Below are positions 19,512 through 64,000 of a stretch of DNA of 64,000 nucleotides, piece by piece; the stretch's first letter is position 1, and every line of letters begins with the position of its first letter. The stretch spans positions 79,031-143,030 of the forward strand of contig CBDEUM010000004.1 of assembly GCA_965242925.1 (NCBI GenBank), given 5' to 3'. The stretch comes from Roseibacillus sp. GTDB taxonomy: Bacteria > Verrucomicrobiota > Verrucomicrobiia > Verrucomicrobiales > Akkermansiaceae. The notes under the pieces were generated by a model. The model was not told where the DNA came from, did not search any database, and saw only the letters and a program-made list of their open reading frames with translations. The translations under genes were made by a program, and so were the position numbers.

Positions 19512-21371
19512 TCAGCGGCGGGTCACAAGAACCTCGAATCCGGCCGAGGCGCGCTGCTGGGCGAACCAGTTCGCCACCGCTATGCGCCGGCTGAAGCTCT
19601 TGTGGGATTCGATCCGAATGTCGATCGTGGTGGCGAGATTAGGGTCCTCGTACACTTCACGTTTCTCCACGAAGAAGAAGAAGGATCGCGTGCCTCCCAG
19701 CGCCTCGTCGTCATCGGTTATCGTTTCCGAGAGGGCACCGGGGTTCACCTGGGAGGCCTTCTCGTATTCGCGGCGCACCACTCCCATCCGTCCGTCCCCG
19801 GTGATCTCCTTGCGCACCACCGGGTTGAGTTTGAGTTCCTTGGCCGTTTCGGTAAAACTCTTACCCGTTGCCATGGCTTCAGTAATCGCGGCATGGTGGC
19901 TGTTGGCTTCCTCCTCCATCGCCTTCATCGCCAACTCCCTGACGAGGTCCTTTTTGACCTCTTCCCTGGCGTCCTCGAAGCTGAGCTCGGATTCCTCCAC
20001 GACTTCTTCAATCTGGAAGTAGATCCATTGATCCTTCCCGATTCCGTGAACCTTGGTAGTGCCGGCGCTCCCGTTGAAGACGGCCTCGGCAGCAGTGCCC
20101 GGCGCGTTGCGGAAGGTGCTGCTGAAATCGCCGGGGAACTTGTCCTGCTCCACCAGGCCGGTGGACTTGAGCTCGAAGCCCAGGTCGGAAGCGGCCTTGG
20201 GGAGGGGGTCTCCGGCATCGACCTTCTCAAGAAGTTCGTCGAACTGCATGGCGAGGTCAAAAACAGCTTCGTTCTTTTCCTGATCAGTTAATTTGTCCTC
20301 GGGCTTGTCCTCGGGCTTGTCCTCGGGCTTGTCCTCGGGCTTGTCCTCGGGCTTGTCCTCGGGCTTGTCCTCGGGCTTGTCCTCGGGCTTGTCCTCGGGC
20401 TTGTCCTCGGGCTTGTCCTCGGGCTTGTCCTCGGTCTTGTCCTCGGGCTTGTCCTCGGGCTTGTCCTCGGGCTTGTCCTCGGGCTTGTCCTCGGGCTTGT
20501 CCTCGGGCTTGTCCTCGGGCTTGTCCTCGGGCTCCTGGCAAGCACCCTCGGCTTGTGCCCGCCGCCGGTTCTCCGGGTGAGGCAGGATCCGGGGTGCTGC
20601 CTGCTTCCGGGGTTTCCTTTGCCTTTACCAGTGCGGCGTAATCCGGAGCGGCGATAATATAGCTGACGCGACGCTTGGGATCAGATTGGTAGCTGCCCTT
20701 GTCGGAGTCCCACTTGCCCTTGATCTCTTCCTCGGTGGGCATGGGCTTGGCAAGGTAATCGGTTACGGGATAGGCGAGCACTTGATAGGAAATTCGTTGC
20801 TGCCGTGAGAGGTAATCGGAAAGAACGACCTCCCGGGAGGTTTCCACTCCGGCACCCAGGAGCTCCTCCAGCTTCTGGAAGCAGATCACCTCACCCATTA
20901 ACTCATTGAGATCCTTGACGGTCATGCCCAGGGATTGCAGTTCACTTCGAGAAATTCGGAATAGGCCCGCTGGTTGAATGCACCGTCCTCCCAGAAGAGG
21001 GTCTCTTTCAGGAAGATTTCGACCTCGGCAGTGGAGGCATGGATACCGAAACCCTCCATGGCCCGCTGCAGGCTCAGGCGATTGATAAGGTATTCGTCAA
21101 TATCAGGTCCGTTATCCCGCGAACCACCGACGAAGGTGAGATAGCCCTGCATCCCGTTTGATCTGCCATTGAGCAGGAGACGCTGAATCAGGCGGGTTGG
21201 TTTGACTGCAAAGCGGTCAAACTGCTGTCGGGTGAAGTCCTGGTCATGCGCGGTGACGACCTTGGGTCCGGTGAGAGACTGATTGGAGCTTCCGAAGAAT
21301 ACGAGCCCCACGAAAATCAGGATCAGGACCACGAACATCAGGCCGGTGTATTTACGGAAGGTCTCTAGCAT
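19512..21371 (-). pseudogene. PpiD/SurA-like membrane-anchored chaperone split by two compensating frameshifts (real or assembly error)
   Basis: MLETFRKYTG plus TM start typical of SurA_N/PpiD; three consecutive ORFs join if a base is added near 20945 and removed near 20558; first and last ORFs are in the same frame. Confidence 0.6.
20293..20532. repeat. Tandem repeat, 20 x 12 bp (TTGTCCTCGGGC), encoding (PEDK)n on the minus strand
   Basis: 20 copies with one variant TTGTCCTCGGTC at 20425-20436; the PEDK frame continues into LTDQEKNEAVFDLAMQFDELLEK. Confidence 0.97.
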
Positions 21372-59834: not shown

Positions 59835-61550
59835 ATGATGAGAATACTCCTTCTAGCGCTTATAACCTGCTGCCCCATGTCCTTATCGGCGGCCCGGCCC
59901 AACGTGCTGTTCATTGCGATCGATGACTTGAATGACTGGGTTGGCTGCATGGGTGGTCATCCCCAGTCCCGGACACCAAACCTGGATCGATTGGCCGCTT
60001 CGGGAGTGCTCTTTACGAATGCGCACTGTCCCGCGCCGGCGTGCAATCCGTCGCGTTCTGCGATTTTCACGGGCATTTCCCCCCATCGGTCGGGTCTTTA
60101 CCGCAATGGGCAGAAGATGCGCCAGGTCCTCCCTGCAGCCGAGTTGTTGCCCAGAACCTTTTCCCTGGCAGGCTATTGGTCGGCGGGATCCGGCAAGATG
60201 CTGCATTACTTCATCGATGCGCAGTCGTGGGATGAATACTTCCCGGAAAAAAAGACGGAGAATCCCTTTCCGCGCACCTTGTATCCCGAACAACGGCCGG
60301 TGAGCCTCCCGCGGGGAGGGCCCTGGCAGTATATTGAGACCGACTGGGGACCCCTGGATGCCAGTGATGAGGAGTATGGCGGGGACTATCTTGTCTCGGA
60401 ATGGATCGGCAAACAGTTGCGCAGGAAACATGACAAACCCTTCTTCCTGGCCTGTGGAATCTACCGTCCGCACGAACCCTGGTTTGTTCCGAAGAAATAC
60501 TTCGACGCGTTCCCCCTTGAGGAAATCCGTTTGCCGCCAGGATACCGGGAAGACGACCTTGATGATCTGCCTGCTGAAGGCAAACGGATGGGACCTAACC
60601 GTTACTTCGCCCATATCCGCGGTCAAAAACAGTGGAGAAGGGCGGTGCAGGGTTACCTGGCCTCCATCTATTTTGCCGACACCATGCTGGGACGCGTCCT
60701 GGAGGCACTCGAGCAAGGGCCGAATGCCAAGGACACCATCGTGGTGCTGTGGTCTGATCATGGTTGGCACCTGGGCGAAAAACAGCATTGGCAGAAATTC
60801 ACCGCGTGGCGGGCCTGCTCCCGGGTGCCATTGATCATGCGGGTGCCCCCGGGAACGCCCGGCTTATCCAAAGGCACATCCCCCGGGTCCTGCTCCCAGC
60901 CGGTGAGTTTGCTGAGTCTGGCGCCGACTCTGCTCGAATTGGCCGGGCTTCCACCGGTGGATGATCACGACGGACCCAGTCTGATCCCCCTGCTGCTTGA
61001 TCCGAAGGCAGATTGGCCCCACACGGCGGTAACGCACCTCGATGCACCCGGCAGTTATGGGTTGAGTGCCGCAAAGTGGCGCTACATTCATTATGCCGGG
61101 GGCGGAGAGGAGCTCTATGAGATTGAGACGGACCCCTACGAATGGAGGAACCTGGCGAATGAGGCAGCGCACTTGCCCACCTTGAAACGGCTGCGTGCAC
61201 TCGCTCCGAAAAAGTTCGCAGAGTTGGTTCAACCGAAGGTGGAATCCCTGCCGGCACTGAAATGGGCGCCGTTGCCTGACGGGGGAAAGGCACCTCCATC
61301 AAAACCTGATGGAAATCCCTTTGATGTGGTCTTCATCAACAACAGCACCCGTCAAGTCGATCTCCTGTGGATGGATCGAACCGGTGGCACCAGGGACTAC
61401 GGAGCGATTGCTCCTGGTGGACGAATTCGCCAACAAACGCGTCCCGGTGCGATGTGGATGATTGCCACGACCGAAGGGAAGAAGAGGAGGAATCTCGGCT
61501 TCTTTGAAGTCGGGGATCGTGCGGCCCGGGCAGTGGTGCCGGGGAAGTAG
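59835..61550 (+). CDS. Sulfatase (iduronate/choline sulfatase-like) with C-terminal VHL-beta-like domain
   Basis: PNVLFIAIDDL, CNPSR, GK..H, RPH.P and SDHG.HLGEK motifs; tail FINNS...V.L.W.D..G...YG...PG....QQT..G..W. Confidence 0.88.
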   Translation: MMRILLLALITCCPMSLSAARPNVLFIAIDDLNDWVGCMGGHPQSRTPNLDRLAASGVLFTNAHCPAPACNPSRSAIFTGISPHRSGLYRNGQKMRQVLPAAELLPRTFSLAGYWSAGSGKMLHYFIDAQSWDEYFPEKKTENPFPRTLYPEQRPVSLPRGGPWQYIETDWGPLDASDEEYGGDYLVSEWIGKQLRRKHDKPFFLACGIYRPHEPWFVPKKYFDAFPLEEIRLPPGYREDDLDDLPAEGKRMGPNRYFAHIRGQKQWRRAVQGYLASIYFADTMLGRVLEALEQGPNAKDTIVVLWSDHGWHLGEKQHWQKFTAWRACSRVPLIMRVPPGTPGLSKGTSPGSCSQPVSLLSLAPTLLELAGLPPVDDHDGPSLIPLLLDPKADWPHTAVTHLDAPGSYGLSAAKWRYIHYAGGGEELYEIETDPYEWRNLANEAAHLPTLKRLRALAPKKFAELVQPKVESLPALKWAPLPDGGKAPPSKPDGNPFDVVFINNSTRQVDLLWMDRTGGTRDYGAIAPGGRIRQQTRPGAMWMIATTEGKKRRNLGFFEVGDRAARAVVPGK

Positions 61551-61639
61551 CAAGGATCTCCGGGCGTGGGCTTCCGGAAAGAAATACGCGGGCTTTTACA
61601 GCCTGGGCCACTGTGTATTATCCGGACACGATTTCACCG

Positions 61640-61712
<73 letters not shown>

Positions 61713-61945
61713 CCTTTTAGCTGCAACGAGTTACGCGGATTTAGGGTGACGCCGATTTCACCCAACGTGCCCCTAACGTGCCCTTACGTTTTTCGGTAGC
61801 TCCATCCAAGGGGCCATGGGCGAGAATAACGCTAACTGCCCTATTAAATCCCTGTTTTTTGAGGGCACAGAAAACCCCCGGAGCGCGGCAGCGGAAATGA
61901 ACCGCCACGCCGCCGGGGGCGTATCTGTATGTCCCGCAAAAATGT

Positions 61946-62476
61946 TTAGGCCGTGATCCAGAGGTCGCTGAGCCACTTGAGCACCCCGCGCCGGGGGGCC
62001 TGGAGGGTCATGTCCTCTGACAGATCCTCCAAATTCTTCTTCCGCTGGAGGATGTTGATTACCTTCGGCGACCTGGTGATGGGGATACCCAACTCGTTGG
62101 CCTCGGCCCGCTCTTTTTCCTCAGTCGCCTCAGCCAGTTCCCCGGCAGCCACTGCGGCCTTCGCGACAATGGGCTGAAGCAGGGGGCAGGTCACCTCCTG
62201 CCGGATCTTCTTGCCGAGGGCGTTGAGCATGTTCACGGAGCCGTCCCTGTAGGCTTCCGCGCGGGGGGCGTCGGCCACGTGAGCGCCGTAAGCGTCGGCG
62301 GCCTCGATGGCGGCATGGACGTCGTCAGCGCAATGGCACGCCCTGCTCAGTTCCCCCTTCTTCTCCACCCATTCCGCCCGGTCATACTTCCGGGCAGCGT
62401 CTGTGATGGCGGTGAGTTGGTCCTCTAGGACCCCGATTTTCTTCAGCTCGCCGGCTGTGAGTTTGAGTAATTTCAT
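61946..62476 (-). CDS. Hypothetical helical protein of the element
   Basis: 176-aa ORF whose ATG overlaps the upstream stop (ATGA). Confidence 0.65.
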   Translation of the reverse strand: MKLLKLTAGELKKIGVLEDQLTAITDAARKYDRAEWVEKKGELSRACHCADDVHAAIEAADAYGAHVADAPRAEAYRDGSVNMLNALGKKIRQEVTCPLLQPIVAKAAVAAGELAEATEEKERAEANELGIPITRSPKVINILQRKKNLEDLSEDMTLQAPRRGVLKWLSDLWITA

Positions 62477-62835
62477 TTGAATACTTGTGGAAATTTTTTT
62501 CTGAATTCGATGCGCCTTTCGGCTGCACCGCTTTCGGACATGTCGATCTGCCGATACAGTGAAATGACTGCGGCCTTCCCTGCCTCGATATCCCCAGGCG
62601 TAGCTTCCCGCTCATACAGATCCGGGGAACCTCGCTTGAGCTTTCTCCGCTCCGAATCACTGGCTAGTGCGGCCATTCCGATGGCGGTCGCGATGGGCAC
62701 CTTTAGGGCAGCGTATTCTTTGTGGTAGATGCGCGAATGAAGCTCCAAGCACGTTTCGAGGAGTTGGCTGCGCGACTTCCCCCGCAGCTCGCTTATGAAC
62801 TCTTTGCGCGATGAATTAGCTGTGATGGTTCTCAT
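62473..62835 (-). CDS. Hypothetical protein of the element
   Basis: MRTITANSSRKEFISEL...; ATG 62835 overlaps the 3' end of the upstream gene. Confidence 0.6.
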   Translation of the reverse strand: MRTITANSSRKEFISELRGKSRSQLLETCLELHSRIYHKEYAALKVPIATAIGMAALASDSERRKLKRGSPDLYEREATPGDIEAGKAAVISLYRQIDMSESGAAERRIEFRKKFPQVFK

Positions 62836-63040
62836 GGCAGATAAAATTGATTCTTCGTTGCAGGTCCGACCGGGTGGCAGCGTCGAGCAGCAAGGCGAGA
62901 AGTGGCCCAAGCTGTGACCCGTGCTCCCGGAGCCAGTCGAGCAGCGCGTCGGGGCTTTCAATCGGCGCACCTTGCGACCGCAACACCCGGAGGCGTTGGC
63001 CCGAAACACCGTAGACGCTGGCTAATTCTTCAGAGGTCAT
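62816..63040 (-). CDS. Small HTH protein (Nu1/excisionase-like winged HTH)
   Basis: TSEELASVYGVSGQRLRVLRSQGAP...LLDW pattern. Confidence 0.55.
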   Translation of the reverse strand: MTSEELASVYGVSGQRLRVLRSQGAPIESPDALLDWLREHGSQLGPLLALLLDAATRSDLQRRINFICHENHHS

Positions 63041-63126
63041 TCGCAACGAAAGAAGTATAGGTCGCGTGCTCCTGGGGCCAACCCCAATATTGTTTAAACT
63101 GATGTTTTCTAGTCTAACATTGATTC

Positions 63127-63375
63127 ATGGAATTGACCCTACGGGAGATCGCCAGTTGCTATGAGATGAGCCCACCCGCGCTTCTTCGATACCGGCAGAG
63201 GGGCGTTGATCTGATGGACCCGCAGGCAGTGGTGGATTCGATGGTGCGGGGTGATCGACCCTCGCCGGTCTGCGATCAGATCCGTGGGCGGTTGACCCCC
63301 ATCAGGCGGGAGTTGACGAAAGCCGTGATGCGGAAGGGTGGAGATCCAGAGGTATTCGGCCTGGACCGGATCTAG
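63127..63375 (+). CDS. Small HTH protein, divergent and apparently paralogous
   Basis: TLREIASCYEMSPPALLRYRQRGVDL.DP pattern. Confidence 0.55.
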   Translation: MELTLREIASCYEMSPPALLRYRQRGVDLMDPQAVVDSMVRGDRPSPVCDQIRGRLTPIRRELTKAVMRKGGDPEVFGLDRI

Positions 63376-63376
63376 T

Positions 63377-63491
63377 GATCAAAACCCCACTTTTGGGGCT
63401 TTGCTCGGGCCGTGGTTTGAAAGGGCAAAAATGACCTTTCATGATGCCGGGGATCAAAAGGCCGAAATCGGACCTTTGCTCGGGCCGGGGT
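63377..63491. repeat. Array A: three imperfect 24-bp palindromes at a 37-38 bp period
   Basis: Palindromes at 63380-63403, 63418-63441 and 63455-63478 with GCCG(G/T)GG linkers. Confidence 0.75.
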
Positions 63492-63510
63492 CAGCGCACG
63501 CATCGCGCAC

Positions 63511-63749
63511 GCTCAAATGTTTCACGCGTGAAACATTTAGGACGTCCCTCTCGGAGAAGATGCGCACGCCTCGTCTATGCTCAGATGTATCGTCGACGAT
63601 ACATCTAGGACGGCCCTCTCGGAGTATATGCGCATGTATCACGCACGCTCAAATGTTTCCCCGGGGAAACATTTAGGACGTCCCTCTCGGAGAAGATTTC
63701 GCACGCCTCGAGCACGCTCAAATGTAACACGCGTGTTACATTTAGGACG
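63511..63749. repeat. Array B: four perfect, sequence-variable 24-bp palindromes at a 68-69 bp period
   Basis: Palindromes at 63515-38, 63583-606, 63651-74 and 63720-43, each flanked by GCTC and AGGACG. Confidence 0.95.
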
Positions 63750-63892
63750 GGCCGGGGTTTAAAGGTCATATTTATTACTTTTTCCGACTCCGGGGGATGC
63801 TCTACCACGGCAGGAAAAAAGAAGCCCGAGGTCCAGGACGAAAAAAGGGGTGTCAAAATGACACCTCAAAAACAGCAGACAAAATAGCGGAA

Positions 63893-64000
63893 GAGAAGTG
63901 GTCCCCACAATGGGGACCACTTGGAGAAGAGAAGTGGGGGCAACAATTGCCTCCACTTGCAGGAGAGAAGTGCGGGCCACAATGACCCGCACTTGGAGAC
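63893..64000. repeat. Array C: 36-bp units GAGAAGTG-N6-ACAAT-N6'-CACTTG-N5, at least three, reaching the window edge
   Basis: Units start at 63893, 63929 and 63965; N6 and N6' are complementary. Confidence 0.92.

Follow-up and report, generated by a model that had tools for sequence, protein, structure and literature searches.

Four different symmetric palindromes arrayed in a Roseibacillus island, in units that look like decayed pieces of phage DUF3102 genes

Background

Tandem arrays of sites, among them plasmid centromeres, iterons and sopC-type arrays, are built of direct repeats of tens of bp with an inverted repeat. Sites can also lie inside the gene of their own binder: the iterons of the phage lambda origin are in gene O, and parS is found in the parB/spo0J gene. 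REPs are dispersed in many copies per genome; the three hairpin families of the DNA that is described here are all at one locus.

Symmetry in DNA can also have a mutational origin. Quasipalindromes undergo template-switch mutation (PMC7202029, in the part of that paper drawn on here), a process that needs no selection to produce changes mirrored in both arms, symmetric centres and inverted loops, and hairpins can be created by template switching (bioRxiv 10.1101/2023.04.19.537475, likewise in part).

The window (the whole stretch of 64,000 nucleotides that was analysed) is the last 64 kb of contig C4 of a Roseibacillus assembly. Near its end lies an array of four palindromes, each perfectly symmetric and each different from the others.

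Anatomy of the array

The array comprises the following features (a strand is given where there is one).

63494 to 63766, minus strand: array of four units spaced 68, 68 and 69 bp apart, each unit with ~23 codons that resemble a segment of a DUF3102 gene in the minus-strand reading, (Y)MRI.SER.VL - NVxxxxHL - SV/I..AC
63515 to 63538: palindrome 1, AAATGTTTCACGCGTGAAACATTT, identical to the palindrome in a DUF3102-type gene of viral contig L163
63583 to 63606: palindrome 2, AGATGTATCGTCGACGATACATCT; the allele of L006, L007 and X1 has 2 differences per arm, all mirrored
63651 to 63674: palindrome 3, AAATGTTTCCCCGGGGAAACATTT
63720 to 63743: palindrome 4, AAATGTAACACGCGTGTTACATTT

All four 24-mers have 12-nt arms, no loop and no mismatch, and their starts are 68, 68 and 69 bp apart. 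The preliminary description had placed four perfect 24-bp palindromes at these positions, and all of its coordinates, arms and symmetries are borne out. Its scaffold of 68-69 bp is confirmed by the spacing and by the period of 68 that Tandem Repeats Finder assigns (63494-63726, 3.4 copies, 73% matches). Perfect loop-less palindromes with arms of at least 12 number 10 in the 4,581,007-bp assembly, where about 0.3 would be expected from length alone, and 4 of these 10 are in the array. The central tetramer is self-complementary in 4 of 4 palindromes (the chance being 1/16 each).

The palindrome frame AAATGT..C......G..ACATTT is exact in three of the four units, and unit 2 departs from it by one mirrored outer change. 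Within the assembly, linker and frame are confined to the array locus, save for one near-palindrome on contig C42. (This 24-bp near-palindrome, at C42:57657-57680 of the same genome, G000, has the same outer frame, pairs at 11 of 12 positions and stands 57 bp upstream of a porin-like gene; its chance expectation is about 0.001, an estimate, and no regulator gene is adjacent. With no regulator nearby, the site is uninformative.) Elsewhere in the window, at 20293-20533, a 12-bp unit, TTGTCCTCGGGC, is repeated in 20.1 copies with 99% identity.

The contig ends 234 bp downstream of the array, inside a second array, and the genome is 89.9% complete, so that a DUF3102 gene or another partner could be missing from view. 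The array is found in variant forms on independent metagenome contigs and on Logan contigs from other studies, and is therefore no assembly artefact, a possibility that the preliminary description had entertained. The same description held that the array is not a continuous coding repeat. This stands for the units as they are (noncoding, and out of frame at 68 bp) but has to be qualified as to their origin, which appears to be in coding sequence.

The island and its hairpin families

The neighbours of the array are these.

61640 to 61714, plus strand: tRNA-Met, adjoined by a four-gene module
61946 to 62838, minus strand: genes for proteins of 121 and 176 aa, part of the four-gene module, no family
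62816 to 63046, minus strand: divergent gene for a 76-aa protein, a paralogue of the 82-aa protein in its N-terminal part (33% identity over 39 aa)
63127 to 63375, plus strand: gene for an 82-aa protein, directly upstream of the arrays, no Pfam family, six-helix model
63377 to 63491: third family, hairpins of variable stem (CAAAA-stem-loop-stem-TTTG) with GCCGGGG-type linkers; more units in L008
63825 to 63865, minus strand: two terminator-like hairpins between the arrays, in a stretch similar to what lies 3' of the L015 AAA_25 gene
63887 to 64000: second array, 36-bp period, 12-bp variable stems and CAA loop, running off the contig end

A Pfam scan of the open reading frames at 61.9-64.0 kb gave nothing above cut-off, and no family was assigned to any of the four proteins of the module. 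For the 82-aa protein there is no noteworthy Pfam, PHROG or PDB sequence match. Its predicted six-helix model is confident; Foldseek finds nothing for it at E<=0.001, and the best Z in VIA-align is 5.2, with HhH/H3TH-like rows at Z about 4, which is below the meaningful level for helical proteins. A profile search against 1.84 billion representatives gave 6 matches, all uninformative. Neither this protein nor the 176-aa protein has a relative in the viral contigs or the genome contigs; about 15 clusters of close relatives of the 82-aa protein are all on short contigs.

Eleven metagenomic loci of these relatives were compared. In L015 and L009 the same four-gene module stands beside a tRNA fragment and a tyrosine integrase, and L015 has genes for AAA_25 and a CHC2/Toprim primase after it, with a hairpin-rich intergenic region; the module is therefore part of an integrative element. 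The assembly of the window has no primase, AAA_25 or integrase homologue, and in L006 the island is reduced to a truncated remnant. In five loci (L009, L011, L013, L015 and L016) the small gene runs straight into a conserved GTTAACC... element, without an array. The small gene has a different ending, over its last three codons, in the window, L006/L007, L008, L010 and L012, and it is there that hairpin arrays are inserted. Being missing from related islands, the arrays are an accessory insertion; they are also dispensable, because islands do without them and because L006 keeps its array in a truncated remnant.

These surroundings bear on the possibility that the array serves its own island in cis, as an origin, a centromere-like region or a packaging region for the primase/AAA_25 or for the 82-aa/76-aa proteins. 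The gene order of L015 with its hairpin-rich region is consistent with such a role, as are the position of the array directly after the 82-aa gene and the 11-bp direct repeat and further short dyads that each unit holds. Five related islands nevertheless have the same genes and no array, the genes for primase, AAA_25 and integrase are absent from the window's assembly, four different cores would be poor repeated sites for one protein, and a period of 68 bp would put neighbours on opposite faces of the helix. A cis site of the island is, on this evidence, decidedly unlikely.

Several other observations were made in and around the island. The conserved element of ~90-130 bp, GTTAACC...TTTTACATTTTTCTCCCGCTGTGATGTGGCC...GTAGGGTTCCC, is present at every locus, behind either the 82-aa gene or the arrays (L006:1940-2060 and L009:3745-3830; also L011, L012, L013, L015 and L016). 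Its later part recurs in the genome of the window (C23:12790-12877, C30:305637-305730 and C30:342103-342191), upstream of several genes for secreted proteins or lipoproteins. The element has no Rfam match; a promoter or a leader is a possible identity. The last part of the 176-aa gene (...WITA stop), together with its GC-rich terminator hairpin, recurs beside another tRNA on C30 (copies at 61864-61946 of the window and, in G000, at C30:304408-304580 and C4:67314-67389), the C30 copy retaining only a 21-codon remnant open reading frame. The pattern suggests that related islands integrated repeatedly beside tRNA genes.

The second array has a period of 36 bp (a multiple of 3); it pairs in 58 of 60 cells, and 6 of 12 pairs are changed on both sides. 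At L006:1856-1932, in the same family, one loop is inverted (CAA to TTG) and the stem is unchanged. The genome G010, which is of the same genus, has a DUF3102 palindrome that likewise has a CAA loop, and the 36-bp hairpin family may be another derivative of a DUF3102-type site. Among viral contigs the 36-bp hairpin pattern has 2 matches, both single chance matches in coding sequence. The third family (63377-63491; L008:1690-2010, with about 8 units in L008) is made of an A-tract, a 5-8-bp stem, an A-rich loop and a T-tract, and has the look of a bidirectional terminator.

A role in RNA has to be weighed here, the transcribed hairpins acting as terminators or insulators, as small RNAs, or as guide-like RNAs of the kind found in stem-loop TIGR arrays. 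The array region folds far better than its shuffles on both strands (z about -8). The neighbouring hairpin families are terminator-like, with two such sites on the minus strand at 63825-63865, and stem-loop TIGR stems are variable but consistently palindromic (PMC12045711, as far as the part used here goes). On the other hand, self-complementary tetramers at 4 of 4 centres are not needed for an RNA loop, mismatches in the neighbouring families show no G.U bias to one strand, and neither spacers nor box C/D separate the arms, which abut. Rfam gives nothing over the arrays at E<=5 (61500-64000), and in 8 related loci at E<=0.1 only the tRNA and one plastid-UTR match on the opposite strand of a tRNA. 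PF01798 (Nop) has no match in the genome, which is 89.9% complete with the contig ending at the array; the control matched in 4 archaea. A structured RNA is accordingly very unlikely to be what the array encodes.

Variation between strains

Eight units (7 of them distinct), from the window and two metagenomic loci, were aligned. All 84 of 84 paired cells are complementary and 7 of 12 pairs have changes on both sides, values that none of 500 shuffles reaches. L006/L007, whose 82-aa protein is 100% identical to that of the window, have three units. Unit 1 is identical to unit 1 of the window. Unit 2 has two differences from its counterpart in each arm, and each of the four is mirrored, between strains whose flanks are 96-100% identical. 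Unit 3 has a single uncompensated change, which makes a G.T pair (an intermediate). L008, with an 82-aa protein that is 99% identical, has one unit, with a further perfect allele and a mirrored outer change from G-C to C-G; a 13-bp direct repeat, CTCGGGCCGGGGT, flanks this single 68-type unit. Logan contigs of other studies contain the L006 allele again and, read from the listed differences, one more perfect allele in a different module order. (At most 0.40 of the sampled words were found in any sequencing run; run X3 covers nothing of the region, and the RNA run X20 covers 63048-63230 only, upstream of the array.) Two palindromes of 30-34 bp with a 67-bp period and a different scaffold lie at the same junction after the small gene in L012 (L012:257-357); they show a mirrored C/T...G/A difference, and an X4 contig has the L012 scaffold with another stem.

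The symmetry of the palindromes is thus actively maintained, as was surmised in the preliminary description: 4 of 4 changes in unit 2 are mirrored between strains with nearly the same flanks. The proposed search of metagenomes for alleles and copy numbers turned up both, in near-identical strains. The mirroring of every change, which was claimed there within the array of the window, extends to the unit 2 alleles and the outer change of L008; the single G.T of L006 unit 3 is an exception, and goes part of the way towards the symmetry-breaking mutations that would have spoken against that description. The suggestion that one arm is written from the other remains viable, given flip-type changes, a symmetric centre and the inverted loop of a neighbouring hairpin in L006. 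Mirrored changes are mostly of this flip type (T-A to A-T, G-C to C-G). Divergence per site is 0.40 in the inner 12 bp, as against 0.07-0.08 in the downstream linker and the outer arms, a conservation of the outer arms 6 times that of the core; the inner core is still symmetric. Selection for two-fold binding may keep the symmetry, or template switching from arm to arm, or the two together.

On one X1 contig position 63886 is joined to 63494, that is, module order differs between strains. Such rearrangement is in keeping with site-specific recombination sites, and the geometry of the palindromes is compatible with 9+6+9 (9-bp inverted arms and a 6-bp centre as the crossover region, the different hexamers making the sites heterospecific); an integrase is also present in related islands. 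But the arms vary as well as the centres, no recombinase is adjacent, the link to DUF3102 would be left unexplained, and symmetric crossover regions lose directionality. The probability of this account is slight.

Palindromes of the same frame in phage DUF3102 genes

The window's own frame, AAATGT..C......G..ACATTT, was used to scan viral contigs and gave at least 115 matches. Among the matches listed, 30 are perfect 24-bp palindromes and 14 have 11 of 12 pairs; with five free pairs, about 0.1 perfect ones would be expected among 115. Most of the listed matches are in long open frames that encode N-V-x-x-x-x-H-L, and in the alignment this motif comes directly after a helix of the form LG..r.tA.RyM..A, which can be read from that alignment as HTH-like. 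Thirteen loci, picked from the 44 listed with 11 or 12 pairs, were scanned for families. PF11300 (DUF3102) is matched by 10 of the 13 at E<=0.01, and in 7 cases the score exceeds the curated cut-off; phrog_1733, 1748, 15609 or 6146, families with no function assigned, are matched by 10 of the 13. A few palindromes are in other regulator-like frames (L083). The outer bases and C9/G16 of the viral sites are conserved and the core differs by phage.

A sample that was not picked by palindrome gives the frequency of such sites: 14 DUF3102 matches came from 10 of 301 genomes of the same bacterial class, and 4 of the 14 have a palindrome with 10-13-nt arms at the NVxxxxHL spot. In 9-10 of the 14 no palindrome is present at arms of at least 9; DUF3102 genes can thus do without it. 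The DUF3102 gene of Streptococcus phage Javan370 contains the site, whereas the homologue in Abc2 reads NSSTLSNL and has no palindrome; it follows that the codons are shaped by the DNA site, rather than the site by the codons. Both phages have the DUF3102 gene immediately behind the small cro-like gene of a divergent switch, with an antirepressor gene following, and the window's array occupies the same relative place. Javan370 has one copy of the site and no further half-site cluster, so that a multi-operator role is not evident there.

Searches for the function of these proteins and for the frame elsewhere gave little. The model of the DUF3102 N-terminal part (pLDDT 81) has no PDB match at E<=0.001, NCBIfam has no name for the DUF3102-type protein, the literature search on DUF3102 found incidental mentions only, and that on the Sfi21 operator nothing relevant. 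PF11300 has no match in the window's own genome (89.9% complete). The frame was matched in 5 of 400 other genomes of the phylum, non-palindromically, its reversed control also matching in 5, and had 5 matches, all non-palindromic, in 19 genomes of the genus. The linker pattern was found in 0 of 40 relatives and 0 viral contigs, and a spurious open reading frame across the array found nothing in a protein collection.

Three kinds of evidence tie the units of the window to these genes directly. First, L163 contains palindrome 1 exactly, in a 358-aa DUF3102-type gene that reads RYMRIAEKWDEIA-NVSRVKHL-SVRK; of the 14 bases 3' of the palindrome, 11 agree with unit 1. The preliminary description had proposed that the 24-mers be compared with phage sequences, and the outcome is divided, for alleles 3 and 4 and the unit 2 allele of L006 were not found in the narrower viral scan, which was complete (16 loci). 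(Allele 2 and the L008 allele are outside the scanned frames; palindrome 1 is the only allele with an exact viral counterpart.) Second, G010 has two DUF3102 genes that read RYMNLYRKRDEIL-KIVTMTNL-SLTDAY. The palindrome at this place is imperfect, and the TCCT...GAGC flanks are common to these genes and the units. Third, protein alignments of the units to the G010 segment are reached by few shuffles (units 1 and 2, 0 of 2000 each; L006 unit 2, 2 of 2000; unit 3, 8 of 2000). DNA-level similarity to G010 is modest (shuffles reaching it: unit 1, 1 of 1000; unit 2, 6 of 1000; unit 3, 30 of 1000; unit 4, 604 of 1000). Since these alignments beat shuffles, each unit looks like a decayed copy of ~23 codons of a DUF3102 gene around an embedded site. 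If DUF3102-embedded palindromes are grouped as proposed here, the array shares with them the frame and the variable core; its units, being noncoding, differ from them in not lying within a gene that matches PF11300 and encodes NVxxxxHL after an HTH-like helix.

Noncoding collections of different palindromes also occur in phages. The 47-kb viral contig L148 has at least 17 different perfect palindromes, 13 of them loop-less, in the 1.6 kb of noncoding DNA at its start, with a cI-type HTH gene 2 kb from the array. One of them is a 24-mer that is found singly in 16 other viral contigs. (Four of these 16 were translated, and three of the four were scanned, as DUF3102-type genes, phrog_1748.) L175 has a noncoding array of about 10 different perfect palindromes beside a Mor-family gene. 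The palindromes of L148:1-1620 and L175:499-1899 have the form (C)AAA-N9|N9-TTT(G), and those of L148 are often followed by a TAtAAT-like hexamer. The recurrence of these sites points to a class of phage DNA sites that has not been described.

A possible role for the array

The analysis shows how the array is built, that its changes are mirrored, that it is accessory and variable between strains, that sites of its kind recur in DUF3102 genes and that its units derive from gene fragments. Beyond this we infer binding, a binder and a docking or decoy role along the following lines. A piece of a DUF3102 gene of about 69 bp, comprising the end of the HTH-like helix, the palindrome and about six further codons, appears to have been tandemly amplified and to have lost its coding capacity. 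The resulting array, on the minus strand, lies after the 82-aa gene of a module that is otherwise found in islands with integrase, primase and AAA_25 genes beside tRNA genes. The presence of a single dyad at a fixed codon position in the DUF3102 genes of many phages argues that the palindrome is a DNA-level cis site, presumably of an early-region DUF3102 module, with conserved outer bases and a phage-specific core. The putative binder would be a protein that contacts DNA as a dimer, in the simplest case the DUF3102 protein itself, and the core would set its specificity. The array would then be a candidate panel of four sites with different cores, on an element without a DUF3102 gene, and could dock or titrate the DUF3102-type proteins of incoming or resident phages, allowing the element to sense a helper or to interfere. 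Symmetry would be kept by two-fold binding, by copying between arms, or by both. That the units are amplified DUF3102 gene pieces, their palindromes protein-bound cis sites and the array such a panel is the reading that we tentatively favour, its probability being a little short of even. A panel of sites for dimeric proteins had been suggested before, and the suggestion gains indirect support because single palindromes of the same frame, with their own cores, sit in the DUF3102 genes of many phages.

The array might instead be debris without function: a captured DUF3102 fragment, duplicated by slippage, its symmetry due to intrastrand template switching and its core changes to mutation and conversion. 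Much of what has been described can be accommodated. The array is missing from related islands, its copy number and order vary among near-identical strains, and its units are out of frame (68 bp). Mirrored changes of the flip type, the symmetric centre, the one intermediate and the loop inversion nearby all fit copying, and quasipalindrome template-switch mutation is an established process (PMC7202029, in the part cited above). What debris does not explain is that DUF3102 genes retain the same kind of site at one codon position, its outer bases and C9/G16 conserved, in phages that differ greatly from one another. It also leaves unexplained the phage noncoding arrays of 10-17 different palindromes and the 6-fold higher conservation of the outer arms compared with the core. 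We regard this account as a real possibility, on balance doubtful.

A bolder version of the panel is that DUF3102 is a large family of phage DNA-binding proteins whose specificity has diversified together with the embedded palindrome, and that arrays are panels directed at rival or helper phages. NVxxxxHL, beside the recognition helix, is encoded by the site, so site and reader would change in one mutational step. The island and the phages represented by L148 and L175 would collect heterologous palindromes in order to sense, titrate or block DUF3102 proteins, and the array could be thought of as a sequence-addressed, protein-based counterpart of a spacer array. This version is speculative and we consider it unlikely.

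Were the panel to prove real, DUF3102, a domain that is common in temperate phages of streptococci and bacilli and in many uncultured viruses, would acquire a testable function. The palindromes and their proteins would form a natural series of orthogonal pairs for studying how DNA-binding specificity diversifies, and arrays of heterologous sites, on an island and in phages, would give mobile elements a means, not seen before, of reading or jamming the early regulators of others. Even if the array is neutral debris, the correction of palindromes from one arm to the other is cleanly recorded in nature at this locus.

Comparison with known systems

The array belongs to no CRISPR, TIGR, REP/BIME or Rfam family. 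A CRISPR array was rejected on the grounds that the variable part is the palindrome, that the remainder is a decayed gene fragment and that no open reading frame at 61.9-64.0 kb has a Pfam family above its cut-off. The 'inverse of CRISPR', as the array was first characterised, finds no support as a system: there are no acquisition or effector genes near it, it is missing from related islands, and its scaffold is what is left of a decayed gene piece. Stem-loop TIGR arrays, the closest idea in print, resemble the array in having a palindromic variable part and short conserved flanks (PMC12045711 and bioRxiv 10.64898/2026.09.09.750476, in the parts used here), the second array of the window having a 36-bp period. 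TIGR stems, however, flank two spacers of 8-12 nt with box C/D and are served by a Nop-domain Tas protein (according to the same part of PMC12045711), while the arms of the array abut and its halves are complementary; with no loop and nothing between the arms, a TIGR stem-loop array was rejected. REP/BIME and REPIN sequences (PMC3116915, in part) are similar in being mosaics of hairpin modules at the 3' ends of genes, with strain-variable copy number. They were rejected because linker, frame and third-family scaffolds are confined to one locus, the linker pattern being found in 0 of 40 relatives.

A parS site, the canonical 16-bp palindrome on which ParB nucleates, was also considered and rejected: a single ParB is encoded in the host, on C38, and no site there comes near the consensus sequence. 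We take palindrome 1 to resemble the parS consensus only when two extra central bases are allowed for. Template switching is a mutational mechanism and not a function, and leaves the conserved outer bases and the recurrence in DUF3102 genes to be explained.

Centromere and iteron arrays offer a further comparison. Like the array of the window they are tandem, stand beside a small gene and vary in copy number between strains. Known arrays of this kind repeat one site, whereas each copy in the window has a different symmetric core and related elements have no array; for the 82-aa protein beside it no convincing structural relative was found. Comparable, too, are the lambda origin and parS inside the genes of their binders: as in DUF3102 genes, a dyad in the coding region dictates codons and differs between related phages. 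The DUF3102 case is distinguished by a single putative site per gene, in a family without a known function, and the window by what appear to be copies of the site region that have parted from the gene.
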